IMG/VR virus record: IMGVR_UViG_3300032226_000829
Source of the DNA: a virus
Lineage: Duplodnaviria; Caudoviricetes
Reading direction: 5' to 3' (one strand)
Length of the DNA stretch: 64,000 nt
The notes below the pieces were generated by a model that did not search any database, had not been told where the DNA came from, and saw nothing but the letters and a program-made list of their open reading frames with translations. Shown here piece after piece: positions 2,840 through 46,680 of this stretch (position 1 is its first letter; every line of letters starts with the position of its first letter). Made by a program: the position numbers and the translations under genes.

Positions 2840-3430
2840 ATGCCAGCATTGGTTCCCATAGTGATTGAACAAGAAGCCAGAGGCGAACGTTCCTACGACA
2901 TTTACAGCCGACTGCTCAAAGATAGATTGGTGATGTTGGATACAGAAGTATCTCCAGTGTCTTCCAGTCTTATTGTGAGTCAACTGCTATTTTTAGAAAG
3001 CGAAAATACCAAACCCATACATTTTTATATCAACTCACCAGGAGGATTGGTTACAGCAGGCATGGCAATCTACGATACCATGCAATATATCAAATCTCCA
3101 GTGTACACCTATGTGATTGGTCAGGCTTGCTCTATGGGCAGTCTATTGTCACAATCAGGTGAAGCAGGTCACAGATACATGTTGAAACATGCCAGACACA
3201 TGATACATCAACCATCAGGTGGTACTCAAGGTCAGGCCACAGACATACAAATTCATGCTCAAGAGATCCTTAAACTTAAAAAGGAACTCACTCAGATCTA
3301 TGTTAATCACAATTCCAAAGGCAAAACCTTTGAGCAATTGAGTGCTGACATGGAACGAGATAAATTCATGAACGCCCAAGAATCCTTTGAGTATGGATTG
3401 ATAGATAAAATTCTATCTAAAAAAGACTAA
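2840..3430 (+). CDS. clpP: ATP-dependent Clp protease proteolytic subunit
   Basis: [24 protein letters not shown] (catalytic Ser), MIHQPSGG (His), MERDKFM (Asp). Confidence 0.97.
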
Positions 3431-12556: not shown

Positions 12557-13126
12557 ATGCAAGACATGAAGCAGTGGATCGAATTGTTCGAAACCAAACA
12601 AAAACGTGAAAAAACCCTAGTGTTGGAAACATTGCCTTATGGCATGGGTGATTTGGATCCTGTGCTGAGCCGTGCCAATGTGGAATATCATTATGGAGTA
12701 TTGAGCCGAGGTTATGTGAATCGATACAACACAGGAGAAGGTGATCCTGATTTCAATTATGGTGGTGCTAAATTGCACAATTTATTTTGGGCTCAATTGC
12801 AAGCACCCCGAGGCAGCAATCTTCCTCAAGGCACAATAAAAGAATTCATAAACGAACATCATAAAGATTATGACAGTTTTAAAGAAACGTTACTTTTGAC
12901 CACTATGAAACTGCAAGGATCTGGATGGGTGTACTTGTCTCGATCAGGAGAGATCAAAACCACTCCCAATCAAACATATCGAACTGATATTTTAATGCCC
13001 ATAGATATGTGGGAACATTCATTTATGGATTATGTGCCGGCAAAAGATGCCAAGAAACGCTACATTACAAATATTTTTAAAATAATCAATTGGTCTACAA
13101 TCAACGACCGTTTGAACACAAAATAA
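12557..13126 (+). CDS. sod: Fe/Mn superoxide dismutase
   Basis: LPY, EYHYG, LHNLFW, QGSGW, DMWEH; four metal ligands present. Confidence 0.88.
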   Translation: MQDMKQWIELFETKQKREKTLVLETLPYGMGDLDPVLSRANVEYHYGVLSRGYVNRYNTGEGDPDFNYGGAKLHNLFWAQLQAPRGSNLPQGTIKEFINEHHKDYDSFKETLLLTTMKLQGSGWVYLSRSGEIKTTPNQTYRTDILMPIDMWEHSFMDYVPAKDAKKRYITNIFKIINWSTINDRLNTK

Positions 13127-34949: not shown

Positions 34950-35786
34950 ATGGATCCATACAAAGTTTTAGGTGTTGATCGCAACATCAACGAAAACGAT
35001 TTGAAAAAAGCCTACAAGAGCAAGGCCATGAAACATCATCCTGACAGAGGTGGTGATGAAAACAAATTTAAAGAACTAAACGAAGCCTACGACATACTGA
35101 AAGATCCACAAAAAAAAGCTGCCTATGACAGATACGGCACTGCAGATCCCAATCAAATGAATTCACAAAATTTTAATTTTAATGGTGATATCAATGATGT
35201 GTTCAACACATTCTTTGGTGGTGGTTTCAATAGAGCAAACAGTGCGAGACACAGACCTCGCAACGCCGACATAAACATAGAAGCCACATTGGATTTAGTA
35301 GATGTGCAAAATGGAAAATCCTTAATTGCCAGTTATAGATTACCCAACGGTCGACAGGAGAGTGTGAACATTGACATTCCGCCAGGAGTGGAACACAACA
35401 ACATGATCAAATTTAATGGTTTGGGTTCTGATTCAGTGAGCAATGCTCCCAGAGGAGATTTGATTGTGAGAGTAAAAATTCTAAGACATAAAACATGGGA
35501 AAGAGATGGCCCTCATCTACTCACAAGAATAAAAGTCAATATATTGGATTTGATATTGGGCACAAAGGAAGAAATACACACACTGTCTGGCAAGAACCTT
35601 TCAATCAGCATACCCAAAGGCACTCAGAACGGCACAGTGTTCAATGTCACAGGAGAAGGATTGCCCAATGTGCATAATCCTAGACAGAAAGGCAACATCT
35701 ATGTCACAGTGCAGGCAGATACGCCACGAGTGGATGACGCAGAATTATTACAAAAAATAAAAAATTTAAAAGATGAACTTAATTAA
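34950..35786 (+). CDS. dnaJ: DnaJ/CbpA-type co-chaperone
   Basis: J-domain with HHPDRGG, G/F region, C-terminal domain, no Zn finger; promoter at 34915. Confidence 0.92.
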   Translation: MDPYKVLGVDRNINENDLKKAYKSKAMKHHPDRGGDENKFKELNEAYDILKDPQKKAAYDRYGTADPNQMNSQNFNFNGDINDVFNTFFGGGFNRANSARHRPRNADINIEATLDLVDVQNGKSLIASYRLPNGRQESVNIDIPPGVEHNNMIKFNGLGSDSVSNAPRGDLIVRVKILRHKTWERDGPHLLTRIKVNILDLILGTKEEIHTLSGKNLSISIPKGTQNGTVFNVTGEGLPNVHNPRQKGNIYVTVQADTPRVDDAELLQKIKNLKDELN

Positions 35787-36267
35787 ATATCCTGATCAGA
35801 GACTGCAACAGACTGTAAAAGATTTTGATTTCAATTCTTTGGATGCTAAAAAAATAGAGCATGAGATGATTCAAACCATGCAAACAGAAATGGGCATTGG
35901 TCTGTCTGCCAATCAGGTTGGATTGGATGCCAAAATATTTGTGATGCAACCACACAGTGTGCTTGGAAAAACCCAACCATTTGCAGTGATAAATCCTGTG
36001 ATACAGGAAGCTTCCACAGATTTGGTTCTGATGGAAGAAGGCTGTTTGAGCTTTCCAAAATTATATCTTAAAATACTCAGACCAAACACCATAGTGGTTA
36101 AATATATTGACAGTGATCAAAAAGAATGTATAATAAAATTAGATAGAATAAATGCTAGAATTTTTTTACATGAATTTGATCATTTGTACGGTATCAACTT
36201 TATCGACAGAGTCAGCAAGTTAAAATTAGATATGGCCCTTAAGAAACAACAGAGATTGCTAAAATAA
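35773..36267 (+). CDS. def: Peptide deformylase
   Basis: GIGLSANQVG, EGCLS, HEFDH. Confidence 0.96.
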   Translation: MNLIKYPDQRLQQTVKDFDFNSLDAKKIEHEMIQTMQTEMGIGLSANQVGLDAKIFVMQPHSVLGKTQPFAVINPVIQEASTDLVLMEEGCLSFPKLYLKILRPNTIVVKYIDSDQKECIIKLDRINARIFLHEFDHLYGINFIDRVSKLKLDMALKKQQRLLK

Positions 36268-36268
36268 T

Positions 36269-38527
36269 ATGGTAGAACCCAGCGACGAACTACAACGCAT
36301 ATTTGACAAAGCAGTAGAAAATGCTGCCAAACTCAAACATGAATACATCACAGTGGAACATCTGTTGTTCTCCATGCTGTGCTATGATAAATTTGTGAAA
36401 AATTTGTCTGACTTTGGCGCAGATGCTGAATCAATCAAAAAAAATCTTGAAAAATATCTTAAGGACAATCTAAAAGAGATTGAACTGTTGGAAGTGCCTG
36501 CAAAATTCAAACCCAAAAAGACTGTGGCTGTGGAGCGAGTACTCAACAGAGCATTCACACAGGTGTTGTTCAGTGGTCGTCAACAGATTGAACTGACTGA
36601 TGTGTTTTTGAGCATGATGAGTGAAAAGAAGAGCTGGAGTTATTATTACATTGCCAAAAGCAACATCAGCAAAGACAAATTTGCTGATTTTTTAAACAGT
36701 GAATTAGAAACTGATTATGAAGCAGAAGAAAACAGTTCTGCCACTCAAAGAGCATTGAATCTATACACTACAAATTTGAATTCGGAAGCAAAAAAAGAAA
36801 AAATAGATCCCGTGATAGGTCGACATGCTGAGTTGGATCAAATTTCATTGGCTTTGGGTCGTAGAATGAAAAACAATGTGATATTAGTGGGTGATCCAGG
36901 AGTGGGTAAAACTGCCATAGCAGAAGGATTGGCATTGAACATTGTGACCAATAAGGTTCCAGACTTTTTAAAAGAGTATCAGGTGTATAATTTAGACATT
37001 GGTGCCATGTTGGCTGGTAGCAAATACAGAGGAGATTTTGAAGAAAGATTCAAAATGGTGTTGCAAGCACTAAAGAAAAAAGGCAAAACCATTGTGTTCA
37101 TAGACGAAGCACACAATATCAGCGGAGCAGGAGCAGGTGGTGGAGACAAAGGATCCAATGATTTAGCAAATTTATTAAAACCAGTGCTGACCAAAGGCAC
37201 ACTAAAAGTTGTGGCCAGTACCACTTGGGAAGAATACAGAAAATACTTTGAAAAAGATCGTGCTCTTATGAGAAGATTCCAAAGAATCACTGTGGATGAG
37301 CCCAGTCAATCAGTGGCCATAGACATATTGAAAGGTCTTAAAAAATATTATGAAAATTATCACAAAGCTGAAATCACAGATGCAGCCATTGAAGCAGCAG
37401 TAAAATTAAGTTGCAAATATCAAACTGATAAGAAATTACCTGACAAGGCCATTGATTTAATAGATCTATCTGGCAGTAGATTCAATATCAGTCCCAAAGA
37501 AAATCGTAAGATTGATGTGGCTGAAGTAGAATTTGAATTAAGTAAACTGATCACCATGCCTGTGGAAAACATTCAACAGAGAGAGAACAGCAACTTGGTA
37601 CATCTTGAAAAAAATTTAAAATCTGAAGTGTACGATCAGGATGAAGCTATTGACAATATTGTGGACAAAGTGTTCATTGCTCAAGCAGGATTGAAAGCAG
37701 AAAATAAACCCATAGGTTCATTTATATTCATGGGACCAACTGGATGTGGTAAAACAGAGACAGCCAAGCAACTCAGCAAACATTTGGGAGTAAAATTGAT
37801 AAGATTTGACATGAGTGAATATCAAGAAAAACACAGTATCAGCAAACTGATTGGATCCCCTCCAGGTTATGTGGGCTATGAAGAAAATGCTGGATCATTG
37901 ATTACAAAATTACAAGAATCACCCAACTGTGTGTTACTGTTGGATGAAATAGAAAAAGCACATCCTGATATTTCACAAATATTGCTTCAGATTATGGATG
38001 AAGGCACAGTGACTGGCAGCAACGGCAAAGTGGCTGACTGCAGGAACATTATGTTGATATTAACCACCAATCTTGGTGCTGAACAGGCAGAAAAAGGCAG
38101 TATAGGTTTTGCTCAGTACATGGATGAAGCATATTCTGACACAGCATTAAAAAAATTCTTCACGCCTGAATTTAGAAACAGATTGGATGCTGTGGTCACA
38201 TTCAAAAAATTAGGCAAACCTACCATGATCAAAATTGTGGGCAAATTCTTGACCGAATTAAAAAAATTCTTAACTGAAAAAAATATTCAAGTAACAGTGT
38301 CTGATGAAGCCATTGATTATCTTGTGGACAAAGGATTTGATCCTAAAATGGGTGCTAGACCCATGCAGAGAACCATTGACAGAGAAATTAAAAAACCATT
38401 GTCAAGAGAACTGCTGTTTGGTGCTTTAAAAAAGGGTGGAAAACTTGTGATCAATGCCAAAGACAATAAAATAGTATTAGAAGTGTCGAATTCGTCGCAG
38501 ACCATAGAAATCGCCACAAACATCTAA
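36269..38527 (+). CDS. clpA: ClpA-type AAA+ unfoldase
   Basis: N-domain [46 protein letters not shown]; no ClpB middle domain. Confidence 0.93.
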
Positions 38528-39968: not shown

Positions 39969-40295
39969 ATGGTCAAGATGAAAGATTTCACAGCAATTAC
40001 CAGAGACAATATGGGATATGATGTGGTAGAGGACATATATCAATTCATGTTGAATGACAGTGTTTTTTTTAGGAAACATTTCTTTCCAGTGGCCAAACAA
40101 GTCACAGACAATCATATGATTGAAAAAGATGTCAACATGTGGAGCAATTGTGTGGAAAATGCCATCCAAGAATATTTTAAAAAATTTAAAATCAAAGCCA
40201 AACCAGAAAAAATAATCAATGCAGATGATCGCGTGAATCTTGTGGGCAAGATTACCAAAGGGTTGGCACAACATCCGGTCAAGAATGCACAATGA
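39969..40295 (+). CDS. Hypothetical protein
   Basis: 108-aa ORF. Confidence 0.6.
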   Translation: MVKMKDFTAITRDNMGYDVVEDIYQFMLNDSVFFRKHFFPVAKQVTDNHMIEKDVNMWSNCVENAIQEYFKKFKIKAKPEKIINADDRVNLVGKITKGLAQHPVKNAQ

Positions 40296-40858
40296 GACTC
40301 ATAGAAATAAGTCAGCCAGCGCCTAAAATTGCCGCATTTGCTTACGGCAGAATGAATCCACCCACCACAGGTCATAAAAAATTAGTGGATACCATTGCGT
40401 CTCAGCCAGGAGATCATTTTTTATTTTTAACACACACTCAAGATGCCAAAACAAATCCTTTGAGTTTTGAAGACAAAGTGCTGTATGCTCAAAAAATGTT
40501 CCCCACAGTCACAGTGGGAGATGCAGGAGTTAAAACCATCATTGATGCCATGAAGAAATTACAAGGCATGGGCTACCGAGATATCATATATGTGGCAGGT
40601 TCAGACAGAGTACAACAATTTGATCAATTGCTGAGCAAATACAATGGCAAAGATTATCAGTTTGACAGTATTAGAACTGTGAATGCTGGCATGAGAGATC
40701 CAGATGCCGAAGGTGCTGCAGGTGTGAGTGCCAGCAAAGCCCGTGAATATGCTGTGCAAGGTGCTAGACGCAGCTTTTTAAGCACCATTCCCGCAGATGA
40801 AAAAATTGGCAACGAGATATATCAAAAAATACGTCAAAACCTAAAGCAAACAGCATAA
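40292..40858 (+). CDS. Cytidylyltransferase-like (HxGH nucleotidyltransferase superfamily) protein
   Basis: FAYGRMNPPTTGHKKL, VAGSDR, GVSASKAR. Confidence 0.8.
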   Translation: MRLIEISQPAPKIAAFAYGRMNPPTTGHKKLVDTIASQPGDHFLFLTHTQDAKTNPLSFEDKVLYAQKMFPTVTVGDAGVKTIIDAMKKLQGMGYRDIIYVAGSDRVQQFDQLLSKYNGKDYQFDSIRTVNAGMRDPDAEGAAGVSASKAREYAVQGARRSFLSTIPADEKIGNEIYQKIRQNLKQTA

Positions 40859-40865
40859 ATATTGT

Positions 40866-41084
40866 ATGAACGAGATTGATAAATTAAAAAAACTGGCAGG
40901 CATAGACACTCTTTCACACACAATGCCATCAGTGGAAAATATCAGTCACACAGCACAGGCATTAAAAGACAAAGAAAAAAAATTAGGCTTGAAACCAGGT
41001 GATCCAGATTGGTTCAAACTGTGGTTCAGTCTGCCACACATGACTGGTTCAGTAGACAGTAAATTTAGAGGAAGAAAGAAATGA
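40866..41084 (+). CDS. Small late protein
   Basis: ATAAATA 4 nt upstream. Confidence 0.6.
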   Translation: MNEIDKLKKLAGIDTLSHTMPSVENISHTAQALKDKEKKLGLKPGDPDWFKLWFSLPHMTGSVDSKFRGRKK

Positions 41085-42196
41085 AGCTAAGACACATCAT
41101 CAACGAAATGGGTTCTAGAATGCCATCATCTATGGTAAAAACTAAATCTAAACTGGACATGATGAATCCAGATGAGATTAGAGCGTTCTTTAAAAATAGA
41201 GAAGATTTTGCAGCACAACACAGAGGCGGAAAGATAGCACCAGGATTTTCAGCCAAAGAATTAGCACAGAGACAGGAGTTCAGCTATGGCAGAGAATTTG
41301 CCAAAGGTCGTCCTTACTCTAAACATTTTGAAAGCACAGAATTAGACGAAGGTTTAAAAGATTGGTTACAAAAAATGGCTGTGGCTGGAATTATTGTGGG
41401 CAGTGTGGCAGGCATAGGTTCCATCAATAATGCCATCAATAATAATGTGCCAGTGATACAAGCCATGAACAAAGCATTAGATGTTGCTAATCAAAAAGGC
41501 GACAAACAATTGATACAGAACATAAAACAAGATATTGATGTGGCTAAAATAAGTTTGGATTCAGGCAAAGATTTGAATACTGTAAAGCAATTACAAGATA
41601 GATATGCAAAATTTATGCCAGCTGATTATAAACCTTCTACTCCTGCTCCTAAATTTAAAGAAGCAGAACAGAACATTGCATATGATCCTACAAATAACAA
41701 ATACGAACATCCTGAATATATTGTATTCTATGCAAAAAGTCGTTCTCACAAAATGAAAGGCGAATATTTTGATTCAAAAGAAGAAGCAGAAAAATTTAGA
41801 GATCAATTGATAGCACAAAAATTTAAAATTGTAGATCTTACACCTTATATGGATCACGTAAATGCTTTAACAAGAAGAAATCGACCATCTAATCCTAAGA
41901 CAGTGGGCGAAGAAGTGGCTAAAACAGACACACTGACCATAGACATACCTATGTTTATTAGATTGATGGAATATGCCAGAGAAGATGCCAAGACTGATAT
42001 GGATCTACACAATGTTACCACAAATTTATTAAAGATCAAAGACAAAACTATCAGCATGGCTGATTATGATCAAGTGGTTCAGTCCACAGATGTTGACACT
42101 GCTGACGAAAGTTTCAAAGATAAAATTGCTAAAAAAATTGTTCAACCCATAAAAGATTACAACAAAGATAAAGAGCAAGAACCAAAAAAATCTTAA
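41081..42196 (+). CDS. Multi-module candidate internal head protein
   Basis: MKLRHIINE tag; unrelated modules separated by Glu-ending linkers. Confidence 0.6.
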   Translation: MKLRHIINEMGSRMPSSMVKTKSKLDMMNPDEIRAFFKNREDFAAQHRGGKIAPGFSAKELAQRQEFSYGREFAKGRPYSKHFESTELDEGLKDWLQKMAVAGIIVGSVAGIGSINNAINNNVPVIQAMNKALDVANQKGDKQLIQNIKQDIDVAKISLDSGKDLNTVKQLQDRYAKFMPADYKPSTPAPKFKEAEQNIAYDPTNNKYEHPEYIVFYAKSRSHKMKGEYFDSKEEAEKFRDQLIAQKFKIVDLTPYMDHVNALTRRNRPSNPKTVGEEVAKTDTLTIDIPMFIRLMEYAREDAKTDMDLHNVTTNLLKIKDKTISMADYDQVVQSTDVDTADESFKDKIAKKIVQPIKDYNKDKEQEPKKS

Positions 42197-42200
42197 TCAT

Positions 42201-42362
42201 ATGATCAAAGAAAAACCATACTGTGTCAACTGCGGTGGGTCAACTCATTGTGGTAAAACTTTCAAAAGAAAAGAGAGCGAAACTGTCAATAACAAAGTCA
42301 CACGTGAATGGACCATAGAAGTATGCCGCAATTGTTGTTGTTCAAAATGTGACAAAGAGTAA
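42201..42362 (+). CDS. 53-aa Cys-rich Zn-finger-like protein (not in ORF track)
   Basis: MIKEKPYCVNCGGSTHCGK...VCRNCCCSKCDKE; TAATG overlap with the next gene. Confidence 0.7.
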   Translation: MIKEKPYCVNCGGSTHCGKTFKRKESETVNNKVTREWTIEVCRNCCCSKCDKE

Positions 42363-43081
42363 TGAAAATAGCCGAAATCACACATACCAAAATAACACTT
42401 GATTTGCACAACGAAAAGTTGTATAATAATACTTGCATGACAGAACAAAATCAAGTGAGACCCACTGTGTATTTGGACATGGATGGTGTGATTGCTGACT
42501 TTTTTGGTGGAGTGGAGAAATTGTACGGTGTGGATCACTGGAAACAATTGACTTCTGACAAAACCAAAGATCTCAAACAAGAAGTGATAGACAGAATAGC
42601 CGGCACAGATTTCTTTGCTAATCTGCCTAAATTTCCCACAACTGACACACTGATTGAAATGATTAAAAAATTCACTGGTGGAAAATACAGCATACTAACA
42701 TCTCCATTGAGAGGTGACACTGAAAACAGTGGATATTACAAAAAGATTTGGATAGGTAAAAACATAGTCAAGCCTGATGAGATTATTGTTACAGGCAGCA
42801 AAGAAGGTTGGGCCACAAAGAATGGTGTGAGCAACATATTGATTGACGATAGACCTATCAATATTGAAAAGTGGCGTGCCAAAGGTGGATATGGCATACT
42901 GTATCAAGCCAACAAAGATCCATTGAGCAAAGTCACACAAGCATTTGAAAATTATCATAAAAAACAATTGGAACCTGTGGAAGATGCAGCAGGCGTGGGC
43001 ATCATTACCAAACAAAATACCACTCGAGATGTCAAACCAGGTGAGATCCGCAGACAAGCAAAAAAATTAAAACTGGTTTAA
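42362..43081 (+). CDS. HAD-family 5'(3')-deoxyribonucleotidase-like (NT5C type) with N-terminal tag
   Basis: YLDMDGVIADF, ILTSP, K, LIDDRPIN, GGYGILY; MKIAEI leader; second Met at 42437. Confidence 0.82.
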   Translation: MKIAEITHTKITLDLHNEKLYNNTCMTEQNQVRPTVYLDMDGVIADFFGGVEKLYGVDHWKQLTSDKTKDLKQEVIDRIAGTDFFANLPKFPTTDTLIEMIKKFTGGKYSILTSPLRGDTENSGYYKKIWIGKNIVKPDEIIVTGSKEGWATKNGVSNILIDDRPINIEKWRAKGGYGILYQANKDPLSKVTQAFENYHKKQLEPVEDAAGVGIITKQNTTRDVKPGEIRRQAKKLKLV

Positions 43082-43085
43082 TACC

Positions 43086-43289
43086 ATGAAGATTCGTGAA
43101 GTAACAGAAAATTTTGCAGATGGCAAAGGTCCAGGCAAACCAGGTGACAGCAAGCGAGCAGGCATACCCAAAGGTGCTACCATCACACAATTAAAGAAGA
43201 TACGCAGTTCTAAAACAGCATCCGCACGCAAGAAACAACTGGCACACTGGCAGATAAACATGCGCCAAGGTCGCAAACGCAATAAATAA
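43086..43289 (+). CDS. Small basic tagged protein
   Basis: MKIREVTE|NFADGKGPGKPG... Confidence 0.7.
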   Translation: MKIREVTENFADGKGPGKPGDSKRAGIPKGATITQLKKIRSSKTASARKKQLAHWQINMRQGRKRNK

Positions 43290-43306
43290 TAGTGTAAAAC
43301 ACTATT

Positions 43307-43468
43307 ATGAAACTCAAAGAAATCACTCAAGGACTGCAAGAAAAACAGGATGCCTGCTATCGTAAGGTCAAATCCAGATACAAAGTGTGGCCCAGTGCCT
43401 ATGCATCAGGTGCATTGGTTCAGTGTCGTAAAAAAGGTGCAGCCAACTGGGGCAACAAGAGCAAATGA
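43307..43468 (+). CDS. 53-aa basic tagged protein (not in ORF track)
   Basis: MKLKEITQGLQE|KQDACYRKVKSRYKVWPSAYASGALVQCRKKGAANWG. Confidence 0.75.
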   Translation: MKLKEITQGLQEKQDACYRKVKSRYKVWPSAYASGALVQCRKKGAANWGNKSK

Positions 43469-43809
43469 AATATAGAGAGATTTTAGAAAAATGCTGGCAA
43501 GGTTATGTGCAGCGTGGCATGAAACCCAAAGGTGATAGAATGGTACCCAACTGTGTGCCCGTGAAGGAAATGGAAGAAGATTTAAAAAAATGGTTCCGTC
43601 AGAAGTGGGTGAGATTTGGTCCAGACGGCAAAATCAAAGGTGATTGTGCCAGAGGTTCTAGTAAAGAAGGCAAGCCCAAATGTTTGCCACAAGCCAAAGC
43701 ACACGCACTGGGTAAAAAAGGTCGTGCCACAGCAGCAGCAAGAAAAAGACGCGAGGATCCCAATCCAGAACGTCGTGGCTCTGCCAAGAATGTGAAGACA
43801 AAAAAATGA
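43465..43809 (+). CDS. Two-module basic tagged protein
   Basis: MKYREILE|KCWQGY...VPNCVP / MEE|DLKKWFRQKWV...GKPKCLP. Confidence 0.75.
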   Translation: MKYREILEKCWQGYVQRGMKPKGDRMVPNCVPVKEMEEDLKKWFRQKWVRFGPDGKIKGDCARGSSKEGKPKCLPQAKAHALGKKGRATAAARKRREDPNPERRGSAKNVKTKK

Positions 43810-43997
43810 AGATACGTGAAATAGTAGAATCCCGAGCAGATTATCATTACGGCATTGATCCAGCACAGTTGAGCTACACATTCAAAGTGGGCGATATATA
43901 CGGTCCAAAAAATCTCAAAGTGCCACACGCAAGGCTTTACAAAGGTGGCAAAGCAGTGAAAAAGCTGGGCATCACTGTGCCCAAAGTTCACAAATAA
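43806..43997 (+). CDS. Small tagged protein
   Basis: MKIREIVE. Confidence 0.65.
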   Translation: MKIREIVESRADYHYGIDPAQLSYTFKVGDIYGPKNLKVPHARLYKGGKAVKKLGITVPKVHK

Positions 43998-44035
43998 TCC
44001 CAAACACCACATAAATACAGCATAGGCGAAACACA

Positions 44036-44236
44036 ATGAAAATAAGAGACATCATAAGAGAAGTGGCTTCTGTGGGATCAACGTCTGCGGGCAATATTGC
44101 CAGCATAGCCAATCCACAAGTGACCAATCCTTATGCTTACAAAAGTGCCAAAGCCAAACCCAAAAAACAAAAACCCACTGATAATGCACTGGACATGAAA
44201 AACGTCAGCATATTCGGCGGCCCATTAAAAAGATAA
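44036..44236 (+). CDS. Small tagged protein
   Basis: MKIRDIIRE; late promoter at 44011. Confidence 0.65.
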   Translation: MKIRDIIREVASVGSTSAGNIASIANPQVTNPYAYKSAKAKPKKQKPTDNALDMKNVSIFGGPLKR

Positions 44237-44244
44237 ATACTCAT

Positions 44245-44622
44245 ATGAAATACAAACAGATCAAAGAAGGTTTAGGAGATGCAGCTCACAAAGCAGAGTT
44301 GGATCACGAAGTTCAAATGGCTCGTGCTGACTTATACAAGTTGGCCAAATACAGCATCAAACTGCATGAGTTATTAAAGAACGTTTCCGAAGCAGAAGGT
44401 CTGGAAGGTTGGGTTCAAGCCAAGATTACTAAAGCATCTGATTACATCAGTTCTGTGTATCATTACATGGATTATGATGAAAAATTTGATCAAGCTGAAA
44501 TTGACAGCATACCTGTGCAAGACATTGCGAAACAATCCGACGGCAAAATAGAAACCTACGAAGAGATTCTTTTTAAAATCTTAAATAAAAAAGTCACAGA
44601 GAAGAAAAATAACAAAAAATAA
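44245..44622 (+). CDS. Tagged hypothetical protein
   Basis: MKYKQIKE; late promoter at 44233. Confidence 0.7.
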   Translation: MKYKQIKEGLGDAAHKAELDHEVQMARADLYKLAKYSIKLHELLKNVSEAEGLEGWVQAKITKASDYISSVYHYMDYDEKFDQAEIDSIPVQDIAKQSDGKIETYEEILFKILNKKVTEKKNNKK

Positions 44623-44639
44623 AAAATTGGAGTGCTGGA

Positions 44640-45158
44640 ATGAAAATTAATGAAATAGTTTCAGAAGCACCTTTTGTCAAAGCATTAAAAAGTTTCCCTG
44701 CTCAAGCAACCAAAGCTATAAAAAATTTCCCCAATCAAATAAAACAAGGCGCCAAAGACGTTAAACAAACAGTAAAAAACTTTCCAGGAAGTGTTCAAAA
44801 TTATTTGTCAAAAGACGACAATATGTCTAAAATAGCCACTGATATTTCCACCATAGGTGGTGGCCCAGGTCTTAAAGACTATGGAGCTGGTGACAAATCA
44901 TCAGATGCACAATTTCAGGATCTGTTAAATGTGCTACAGGATAAATCCTTGAGCAAAAAAATTGACAAGCAAAAAATTACCACAGCAATGACAAACATGT
45001 ATCAATCAGATAAACAACTTCCCACTGATAGACAGTATTTTATAAATGCAATCAAGCATTTATCCGCAACACATCCAGCGATCACGCCTGATAAAATATA
45101 CAGCGAGTATAAACCAATATTCAAAAGATATCAAATCAATCCTAACGAAATAAAATAA
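44640..45158 (+). CDS. Tagged hypothetical protein with K(S/N)FP repeats
   Basis: MKINEIVSE; KSFP/KNFP/KNFP. Confidence 0.65.
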   Translation: MKINEIVSEAPFVKALKSFPAQATKAIKNFPNQIKQGAKDVKQTVKNFPGSVQNYLSKDDNMSKIATDISTIGGGPGLKDYGAGDKSSDAQFQDLLNVLQDKSLSKKIDKQKITTAMTNMYQSDKQLPTDRQYFINAIKHLSATHPAITPDKIYSEYKPIFKRYQINPNEIK

Positions 45159-45829: not shown

Positions 45830-45890
45830 ACCTTGACAATTGTGTGATAATCGATTACAATATAACAATCTAAATCAAAGGAGAAATAAA

Positions 45891-46386: not shown

Positions 46387-46680
46387 ATGAAGTACATCAT
46401 TGACATTGACAACACAATTTGCTATAATAAAGACAGCGATTATGTCAACAGTACACCTGACATCACACGCATAGCCCGAGTTAATCAGTTGTATGATGAT
46501 GGACACGAGATTCATTATTACACAGCAAGAGGTGGCAACAGTGGCAAAGACTGGAGTGAGTTAACTCGTCAACAGTTGACTGAATGGGGGTGCAAATTCC
46601 ATTCAGTAAATTTGGGCAAACCAGTGTATGATGTTTGGGTGGATGACAGAGCTGTTAAAGCAGAGGATTTTTTTAAATGA
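46387..46680 (+). CDS. Minimal HAD-family phosphatase
   Basis: IDIDNTI, YTARG, GKP, VDDRA. Confidence 0.8.
   Translation: MKYIIDIDNTICYNKDSDYVNSTPDITRIARVNQLYDDGHEIHYYTARGGNSGKDWSELTRQQLTEWGCKFHSVNLGKPVYDVWVDDRAVKAEDFFK

Follow-up and report, generated by a model that had tools for sequence, protein, structure and literature searches.

Unrelated proteins with a shared N-terminal leader in an uncultured jumbo phage: a putative capsid-targeting tag of the T4 type

The internal proteins of T-even phages form a diverse set whose sole common feature is the capsid-targeting sequence, CTS (PMC3012670, PMC9026906, PMC8442874). In T4 this sequence reads MKTYQEFIAE, and the internal proteins are basic (PMC8442874). 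Residues 4 and 7 of the CTS serve targeting and residues 8 and 10 processing, the prohead protease gp21 cutting after L/I-x-E (PMC9026906). In phiKZ, 201phi2-1 and SPN3US, a diverged homologue of gp21 cleaves dozens of head-internal proteins behind Glu, in some cases at several sites, and these proteins are not reported to have a single N-terminal address tag in common (PMC9026906, PMC5694885). Polyvalent proteins are single polypeptides made up of several effector-like modules, and their packaging and delivery along with the DNA have been predicted (Iyer et al. 2017, PMC5512222).

The locus considered here lies in a stretch of 64,000 nucleotides (the window); its source is an uncultured jumbo phage, and its late-promoter-like motifs resemble those of T4. 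Between positions 40292 and 45158, 10 of 12 consecutive genes on the + strand open with a leader of 8-9 residues that fits ^M[KR][ILY]x[EDQH][IV], a pattern derived post hoc, after the data had been seen (Table 1). A scan of the window, of the kind that the original prediction had proposed for the whole genome, found this pattern in none of the 82 other called genes (Fisher p = 7e-12, for a post hoc pattern), and the other ATG-led open frames on both strands of the window gave no further match. That prediction had spoken of about 11 unrelated proteins with a common tag; all eleven N-termini that it quoted lie where it had placed them and 10 of the genes fit, but 40866 (MNEIDKL), which it had named the weakest match, fails the pattern and is a variant at best. 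Orthologues of 40866 carry the leader MNIEDLKRLAGITE before a Phe. The only other misfit within the array is the Cys-rich gene 42201, which the prediction had left out of its list. Immediately 5' of the array, orthologues of gene 39969 start MKAKEFTA, MKQKEFTA or MKITEFID, the window copy, MVKMKDFTA, being shifted by one residue.

Table 1. Genes and promoter-like elements of the array, in window coordinates; a slash marks the predicted end of a leader.
Feature	Position	Strand	Basis
Possible first member, 108-aa gene just 5' of array	39969..40295	+	tag-like in relatives
Tagged nucleotidyltransferase, MRLIE/ISQPAP..., HIGH/PPAT-like fold, TTGH motif	40292..40858	+	phrog_3041, AF2, Foldseek
ATAAATA late-promoter-like motif	40855..40861	+	
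72-aa protein, variant leader MNEIDKLKKLAGI...	40866..41084	+	orthologues
Tagged 371-aa multi-module protein, MKLRHIINE/M...	41081..42196	+	tag, internal junction
Untagged 53-aa Cys-rich protein (zinc-ribbon-like), within array	42201..42362	+	conserved in relatives
Tagged NT5C/HAD 5'-nucleotidase, MKIAE/IT..., C-terminal AAGVGIITKQNTT... module	42362..43081	+	Pfam NT5C, phrog_2643, homologues
Tagged 67-aa very basic protein, MKIREVTE/NFADGKG..., mature pI 12	43086..43289	+	
ATAAATA late-promoter-like motif	43282..43288	+	
Tagged 53-aa DUF5872-like basic protein, MKLKEITQGLQE/KQDACY...	43307..43468	+	phrog_727 E 3e-22, junctions
Tagged 114-aa basic two-module protein, MKYREILE/KCWQGY...	43465..43809	+	
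Tagged 63-aa basic protein, MKIREIVE/SRADYHYG...	43806..43997	+	
ATAAATA late-promoter-like motif	44011..44017	+	
Tagged 66-aa basic protein, MKIRDIIRE/VASVGSTSAGNIA...	44036..44236	+	
ATAAATA late-promoter-like motif	44233..44239	+	
Tagged 125-aa acidic helical protein, MKYKQIKE/GLGD...	44245..44622	+	
Tagged 172-aa protein, no family assigned, MKINEIVSE/APF...	44640..45158	+	

The bodies behind these leaders are unrelated, since an all-against-all BLASTP of the array proteins yields a single match, which pairs the first 12 residues of 43086 with those of 43806. They are mostly small, of low complexity and very basic, as had been predicted of many of them (8/13 predicted mature bodies at pI 9.6-12); a Pfam search with seven array or relative proteins and a Megablast of the array against cultured phages returned no match. 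The codons of the tag vary synonymously (Ile as ATA, ATT or ATC; Arg as AGA or CGT; Lys as AAA or AAG; Leu as CTA or CTC), so that conservation acts at the protein level, and this variation together with the unrelated bodies points to selection on the peptide. What is conserved are amino-acid classes at positions 3, 5, 6 and 8/9, and these are kept in orthologues of 50% identity. The common start might instead serve translation initiation or a co-translational step, through early codons rich in A or restarts coupled at ATGA, or might stem from a cassette by which recombination shuffles genes; the peptide as such would then have no role. Several array genes do overlap the preceding stop codon (ATGA) and lack a clear Shine-Dalgarno sequence, and Lys AAA is a frequent second codon among highly expressed genes. 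Such an origin is nevertheless very improbable, given the codon variation at the conserved Ile, Leu, Arg and Lys, the retention of amino-acid classes in orthologues and the presence of the same motif at internal module junctions, where no initiation takes place.

Compared with the T4 CTS, the window tag has the same Met-Lys, hydrophobic residues at i, i+3 and i+4 and a final Glu, both sequences being too short for statistics; MKIRDIIRE, MKLRHIINE and MKINEIVSE align with it once one residue is removed. The likeness extends to a short leader on unrelated, mostly basic proteins in which hydrophobics three apart are followed by [I/L/V]-x-Glu, to a gp21-family protease predicted in relatives and to a late-promoter-like context. 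The tag is, however, 8-9 residues long against 10 in T4, with identity only at M, K and E. All ten tagged leaders contain [I/L/V]-x-E within their first 12 residues, eight of them at residues 6-9 or 10-12, whereas MRLIE and MKIAE have it at residues 3-5 only, that is, as an early site after residue 5. Cleavage in phiKZ, 201phi2-1 and SPN3US, which belong to a different jumbo-phage clade, follows S/A/G-x-E rather than the I/L/V-x-E found here.

IMG/VR orthologues with body identities of 50-90% keep the tag pattern, those of the nucleotidyltransferase starting MRLVE, MRFLE, MLITEILE, MRLRHVFE or MQLRE. In these comparisons a tag was also accepted at an internal Met within 20 residues, because taking the longest ORF masked several tags behind earlier in-frame starts; a scoring matrix derived from the window was overly strict for the more distant relatives. 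The same bodies occur in relatives either inside polyproteins or as separate genes, each with its own tag, and at most module junctions of the polyproteins there is a Glu, usually as [I/L/V]-x-Glu. Thus NFADGKG follows MKIREVTE/ in the window and ...NSIQE/ and ...DMVE/ in two relatives (L007 and P0070); KQDACY follows ...GLQE/ in the window, ...DITE/ in L007 and ...KLAE/ in G007; ASxGxTSAG follows ...IIRE/, ...IISE/ or ...MIRE/, and ...EIGE/ inside a 629-aa protein of G008; and KCWxGY follows ...EILE/ in the window and ...TLFE/ inside gp114 of cyanophage S-CAM9. Within 41081, the internal junction ...IRLME/YAREDAK matches a stand-alone tagged gene of the relative G010. Of 11 junctions in an automated set, four fit [ILVF]-x-E and one more does so on visual reading, where the background rate is 1.6% per position; read by eye, Glu stands exactly at the boundary in 7/11. 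Some junctions have Glu without a hydrophobic P3 residue (QHE/G, KKE/G) or have Asp (MFD/N), and the S-CAM9 junction GSG/KKDACY has no acidic residue.

Array modules are thus found fused in relatives of the window and in S-CAM9 gp114, in which they resemble polyvalent proteins; the window differs in having mostly separate genes with their own tags, and its modules fall outside the catalogue of PMC5512222 so far as compared. The alternation of the same modules between separate tagged genes and polyproteins also sets the lineage apart from T4. So does the number of tagged genes, which is at least 10 in the window array and about 20 of 470 (about 4%) in a 330-kb relative, against three T4 internal proteins. 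Relatives show, in addition, a second cluster of tagged genes and others that are scattered, and the notion of one discrete modular cargo locus did not hold.

Four array genes (40866, 43307, 44036 and 44245) have ATAAATA at most 25 nt upstream, in agreement with the claim that several follow such motifs. Of the 13 ATAAATA motifs on the + strand of the window, 11 are no more than 45 nt away from a gene start; four belong to the array, and most of the others precede tail-fibre-like genes. A scan for sigma-70-like promoters inside the array gave no strong candidate. One sigma-70 candidate in the leader of 42362 (TTGATT-17-TATAAT, a 10/12 match) is one of 27, with 22.6 +/- 3.4 in shuffles, and is no better than chance expectation.

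In relatives, the tags co-occur with a gp21-type protease predicted by profile match, and it is in these relatives only that the protease and T4-like head genes are seen. The PF03420 protease of G008 (91.7 bits) is encoded next to a portal, a scaffold-like protein and a gp23-like capsid protein, and the domain is also present in G010, a 93%-complete relative that carries the tagged array. It was not found in G007, the closest long relative contig (148 kb, partial), and neither protease nor capsid gene was found in the nearest record, a 48-kb fragment (G001). When the N-terminal 60 residues of one tagged protein of G008 were modelled in complex with the scaffold-like protein from the same relative, the score was 0.00 with both chains poorly folded, a result that speaks neither way on binding.

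The cultured phage PA5oct, a distant relative of the same broad clade, encodes a capsid protein 67% identical to that of G008 and a PF03420 protease (gp152, 85 bits). Its virion proteome, determined by ESI-MS/MS, comprises 93 virion-associated proteins among 461 (Lood et al. 2020, PMC7318152). Five of the 8-10 PA5oct proteins that match the tag pattern are among them (gp150, gp230, gp238, gp380 and gp381), an enrichment over the overall 93/461 with Fisher p 0.01-0.03, and several virion proteins start MKINDIITE, MKIKDILVE, MRLNEINLIE or MKILEFNLTE. The virion-protein cluster gp225-gp240 of PA5oct shares synteny with the second cluster of tagged genes in G007 and G010. None of the pattern-matching PA5oct proteins is homologous to any array protein; the array bodies are missing from PA5oct save for gp307, an untagged nucleotidyltransferase with no virion note. 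A term search of the main text of the PA5oct paper (PMC7318152) turned up nothing on a shared leader or processing.

Because the phage encodes ClpP and a ClpA-like ATPase, the N-terminus could also be recognised by another protease. As a degradation or recognition signal for this machinery, the leader would time protein lifetime, with the capsid not involved. ClpP (PF00574, 245 bits) lies at 2840-3430 of the window, a 752-aa Clp_N/AAA/AAA_2/ClpB_D2-small ATPase at 36269-38527, just 2 kb before the array begins, and DnaJ and peptide deformylase are encoded as well. This explanation is nonetheless hardly credible: it accounts neither for Glu, usually [I/L/V]-x-Glu, at internal polyprotein junctions, nor for late-promoter-like motifs common to fibre genes, nor for the T4 CTS pattern match and the excess among PA5oct virion proteins, and leaders beginning Met-Lys/Arg-Ile/Leu have neither an N-end-rule residue nor a known ClpX/ClpA N-motif.

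In contrast to T4, the putative cargo of the window includes a nucleotidyltransferase and a 5'-nucleotidase, and the expectation of two enzymes in the array was borne out, in one case by a Pfam score above the cut-off and in the other by a phrog match together with a PPAT-like fold. Gene 42362 matches Pfam NT5C (PF06941) at 26.4 bits, with a cut-off of 24.8, and phrog_2643 at E 9e-25; the DxDGV motif of its HAD core is present as YLDMDGVIADF, and a 221-kb ENA contig carries an NT5C gene 95% identical to it. The match of gene 40292 is to phrog_3041, 'cytidyltransferase' (E 2e-48), and the gene product has the TTGH motif, while its 17.5 bits against PF01467 fall under the 21-bit Pfam cut-off; PDB sequence searches gave marginal PPAT and NMNAT matches only. 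A Foldseek search with its AF2 model indicates a PPAT-like HIGH-nucleotidyltransferase fold (TM about 0.6). In this model residues 1-12 form low-confidence coil, with the first strand beginning only at residue 13, which places the tag outside the predicted folded domain. The two enzymes are fused in hundreds of relatives, and fusions of 388-391 aa have one tag, whereas the split genes of the window have one each.

These enzymes also bear on a narrower role for the leader, namely that of a prohead-core or processing propeptide only, in which its bearers would be scaffold, core or DNA-condensing fillers, degraded or retained, and the enzymes would act in assembly with no delivery to the host. 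Most bodies have the size, basicity and low complexity expected of fillers; T4 gp22, gp67 and gp68 are likewise cut at L/I-x-E, most of their fragments leaving the head (PMC9026906), and the tagged PA5oct gp150 directly follows the portal gene, in the place of T4 gp67/gp68. Against this, two of the putative cargo proteins are folded enzymes whose catalytic motifs are intact, five pattern-matching PA5oct proteins remain in mature virions and the array lies far from the head module, so we regard such a role as unlikely.

In line with the core of the original proposal, the shared N-terminus is probably a capsid-targeting propeptide of the T4 type, which a prohead protease related to gp21 would remove by cutting after [I/L/V]-x-Glu. 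The proposal draws support from the gp21 motif in which the tag ends, Glu at most junctions, the protease in relatives, the late-promoter-like motifs in common with fibre genes and the enrichment in PA5oct virions; targeting by the tag itself and cleavage are both what we infer from these patterns. The leader M-[K/R]-[I/L]-x-[E/D]-[I/L/V]-(x)-x-E would bring proteins made late into the core of the assembling prohead. There a serine prohead protease of the gp21 type, cutting behind the Glu of [I/L/V]-x-E, would release the mostly basic mature bodies, together with two nucleotide enzymes, next to the DNA within the head. That this cargo is later injected with the DNA, taken as a step on its own, is plausible but somewhat doubtful. 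The mechanism is already known from T4, and the window extends it without adding a new one. On a more far-reaching view, which we consider rather improbable, the array belongs to an open, fast-evolving cargo system whose nucleotidyltransferase and NT5C enzyme enter the host with the DNA and, ahead of any phage gene expression, target its nucleotide pools or the nucleotides of immune signalling. Modules breaking away from a packaged polyprotein would each gain an address tag of their own, and a large, swappable set of pre-made proteins would therefore be kept in the head.

If the capsid-targeting reading is true, late genes that open with M-K/R-hydrophobic-x-acid-hydrophobic...Glu would be predicted to encode capsid-borne proteins in an abundant clade of uncultured aquatic jumbo phages. 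Candidates for first-minute effectors and for proteins that pack DNA could then be listed directly, and a natural tag would be at hand with which foreign proteins could be loaded into jumbo-phage heads. PA5oct offers a cultured test bed that is ready at once, and the alternation between separate genes and polyproteins shows the evolution of such cargo sets.

Ten of the twelve consecutive genes in the array (named here by start coordinate) begin with the same short N-terminal pattern, M-[K/R]-[I/L/Y]-x-[E/D/Q/H]-[I/V], the leaders being MRLIEI, MKLRHIINE, MKIAEIT, MKIREVTE, MKLKEITQGLQE, MKYREILE, MKIREIVE, MKIRDIIRE, MKYKQIKE, and MKINEIVSE. The two genes outside the pattern are 40866, which starts MNEIDKL, and 42201, encoding a Cys-rich protein that relatives keep. 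The window is a single long run of + strand genes with a GC content of ~38%, and the pattern occurs in none of its 82 other called genes (Fisher p = 7e-12, for a pattern chosen post hoc on data already seen) nor in any of the remaining ATG-led open frames of the two strands. All-against-all BLASTP of the array proteins finds the leader as the only shared stretch, bearing out the original prediction of an array of unrelated proteins with a common N-terminal tag. Because nothing but the leader is common to these proteins and its conserved residues are encoded by varying codons, selection acts on the peptide, excluding both a DNA cassette and a paralogue family. The same codon variation, together with the conserved residue classes, contradicts a signal at the level of RNA or translation start, which is very improbable as an account of the leader.

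The DNA polymerase of the window is 42-48% identical to homologues in jumbo myophages (Sinorhizobium Phosso, Agrobacterium Atu_ph07, Vibrio 2.275.O, and others), and IMG/VR contains numerous lake and sea relatives. Three long contigs of relatives were assembled: G007 (148 kb), G008 (200 kb), and G010 (330 kb, 93% complete). Across orthologues the residues of the tag drift while its pattern stays, as in the leaders of the nucleotidyltransferase (MRLIE, MRLVE, MRFLE, MRLTE, MLITEILE, MRLRHVFE, MQLRE). A consensus built from 60 distinct leaders reads M, K or R, I or L, any residue, E or D, then I, L, F or V, and a seventh residue that is mostly hydrophobic or T; E is commonest at position 8 or 9, each position carrying it in roughly a quarter of the leaders. 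A relaxed pattern matches 20 of 470 N-termini of G010 versus 3 of its 1684 internal Met sites, the matches concentrating in the array homologue and in a second region, and G007 has a similar second tagged cluster.

Coordinates of the array and of associated features in the window and its relatives
Feature	Position	Remarks
Tagged array	window 40292-45158	
Nucleotidyltransferase gene	window 40292-40858	
NT5C nucleotidase gene	window 42362-43081	
Cys-rich protein, mid-array	window 42201-42362; L007:9191-9370 (relative)	53 aa, untagged; nine Cys, CxxC...C...CxxCCC...C
(A)AGVG-I-ITKQNTT module	window 42962-43081; L007:7648-7962; G008 (reversed) 66047-67798	C-terminal on window NT5C; directly behind N-terminal tag in relatives
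Tagged regions of relatives	G010 10-14 kb and 230-250 kb; G007 27-34 kb	
Protease and capsid L-x-E	G008 (reversed) 179644-182600; G010 139582-142498; PA5oct 84079-87037	
S-CAM9 gp114 gene	L110:3002-5101	annotated 'hypothetical protein'
Proteostasis genes	window 2840-3430, 34950-38527	
Superoxide dismutase gene	window 12557-13126	Fe/Mn type
Sigma-70-like promoters	window 45833-45861; 46400-46428	11/12; 12/12, extended TG

The bodies behind the leaders include two predicted enzymes, as originally proposed: a PPAT-like HIGH nucleotidyltransferase (40292), whose AF2 model (pLDDT 82.6) has residues 1-12 as low-confidence coil ahead of the first strand, and an NT5C-type nucleotidase (42362). The latter carries an additional C-terminal AAGVGIITKQNTT... 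module, which in other phages lies directly behind the tag; this module of ~30 residues, (A)AGVG-I-ITKQNTT-x-DV-x-PGE...KL-x-L, lacks a Pfam family and might serve as a second element for sorting or DNA binding. The products of 43307 and 43465, both small basic modules that contain Cys, also occur within gp114 (699 aa) of the Synechococcus cyanophage S-CAM9, 41081 looks like a multi-module protein, and the remaining array proteins belong to no known family. The S-CAM9 protein is itself a string of modules homologous to 44245, 43465, and 43307, with repeated YEPEGE-[QLV]-I-x-E linkers, and adjoins an annotated structural protein. The tagged proteins might also enter the head without being delivered and serve only to build it or to condense DNA, which is plausible for the small basic ones, though unlikely as a general account.

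The same bodies are found directly behind the tag in one phage and within a polyprotein in another, and in most of the junctions compared a Glu, usually as [I/L/V]-x-Glu, stands exactly at the boundary. With / marking the proposed cut, the junctions read VTE/, IQE/, and MVE/ for NFADGKG; LQE/, ITE/, and LAE/ for KQDACY; IRE/, ISE/, IRE/, and IGE/ for ASxGxTSAG; IKE/, VQE/, and VQE/ for the 44245-like helix pair; ILE/ and LFE/ for KCWxGY; and IDE/ twice for FIxxxTQWLK. An internal junction of 41081, ...IRLME/YAREDAK..., matches a stand-alone tagged gene of G010. In an automated set, 4 of 11 junctions fit [ILVF]-x-E and visual inspection adds a fifth, compared with a background of 1.6% per position; Glu precedes the proposed cut in 7 of the 11 printed junctions as read by eye. 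Exceptions to the usual motif exist: QHE/, KKE/, MFD/, and one cyanophage junction without an acidic residue. Fusion also involves the enzymes: in hundreds of database relatives the nucleotidyltransferase and the nucleotidase form one protein of ~390 aa with a single leader, and in others the nucleotidase is fused to the body of the following gene, whereas in the window all three are separate genes with a leader each. One leader per polypeptide is what would be expected if each polypeptide requires its own address. The fused proteins (PF01467+PF06941; for example P0072 and P0118) occur in many metagenomic relatives, some being named NaMN adenylyltransferase by JGI, and suggest that the two enzymes act in one pathway.

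The T4 capsid-targeting sequence, MKTYQEFIAE (PMC8442874), uses residues 4 and 7 for targeting and residues 8 and 10 for processing by the prohead protease gp21, whose cleavage site follows L/I-x-E (PMC9026906). Once one residue is deleted, the window's 9-residue tags align with the T4 sequence and keep its hydrophobic i, i+3, i+4 spacing and the final Glu. A gp21-type protease is documented in relatives only (G008, G010, and PA5oct, a cultured Pseudomonas phage). In G008 the protease (Peptidase_S77/gp21; PF03420, 91.7 bits) belongs to a T4-like head module, together with a portal (phrog_213), a scaffold-like gene, and a gp23-like capsid gene; the capsid protein shares 67-70% identity with its counterparts in Phosso, Vibrio 2.275.O, and PA5oct. 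G010 has the same protease, as does PA5oct (gp152). In all three, protease and capsid protein have conserved L-x-E sites near their own N-termini (for example capsid ...ALLE/GL, ...ALTE/GL), comparable to the LIE site described for T4 gp21.

PA5oct has virion proteins identified by mass spectrometry and marked in its GenBank record. The relaxed pattern, fixed before these marks were inspected, selects 10 ORFs, of which five (gp150, gp230, gp238, gp380, and gp381) are marked, compared with 93 of 461 overall (PMC7318152; Fisher p 0.01-0.03), a statistical enrichment in a distant relative. The nucleotidyltransferase homologue gp307 has neither tag nor mark. Synteny links the gp225-gp240 virion cluster to the second tagged cluster in both G007 and G010. 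A keyword search of the proteome paper's main text turned up no mention of a common leader or of processing (PMC7318152). The ClpP homologue of PA5oct also has a virion mass-spectrometry note.

ATAAATA late-promoter-like motifs, originally noted ahead of several tagged genes, are indeed found there: of the 13 + strand motifs in the window, 11 have a gene start no more than 45 nt downstream; four of these occur in the array, and most others precede tail-fibre-like genes. One precedes the superoxide dismutase gene, whose N-terminal extension (MQDMKQWIELFE/T) ends in L-x-E, although it is distinct from the array tag. Near-perfect sigma-70-like promoters occur only just downstream of the array, and their sequences mark a predicted switch to host-polymerase-type transcription units. 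The window also encodes a proteostasis set of ClpP (245 bits), DnaJ, peptide deformylase, and a 752-aa ClpA-like double-AAA ATPase. Since the phage encodes ClpP and, near the array, the ATPase, the leader might be thought a Clp degron, a very improbable reading, as it accounts neither for the motifs at internal junctions and ahead of late-type genes nor for the PA5oct virion data.

The leader is thus best read as a predicted T4-type capsid-targeting propeptide, which we consider likely. Complex prediction for a tagged protein and the scaffold-like protein of G008 scored 0.00 with poorly folded chains and weighs on neither side. By analogy with T4, the array proteins might also be injected into the host, a step for which the odds are somewhat short of even. 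The concept is established in T-even phages, whose diverse internal proteins have the targeting sequence as their sole common part (PMC3012670), and proteins of phiKZ-like giant phages are known to be processed after Glu (PMC9026906); a literature search of incomplete coverage found no paper connecting such targeting sequences with this jumbo clade, with RaK2- or PA5oct-like phages, or with cyanophages. To the known T4-type concept the array would add the evidence from junctions and from fission and fusion, enzymes as cargo, and, in PA5oct, a cultured test bed.
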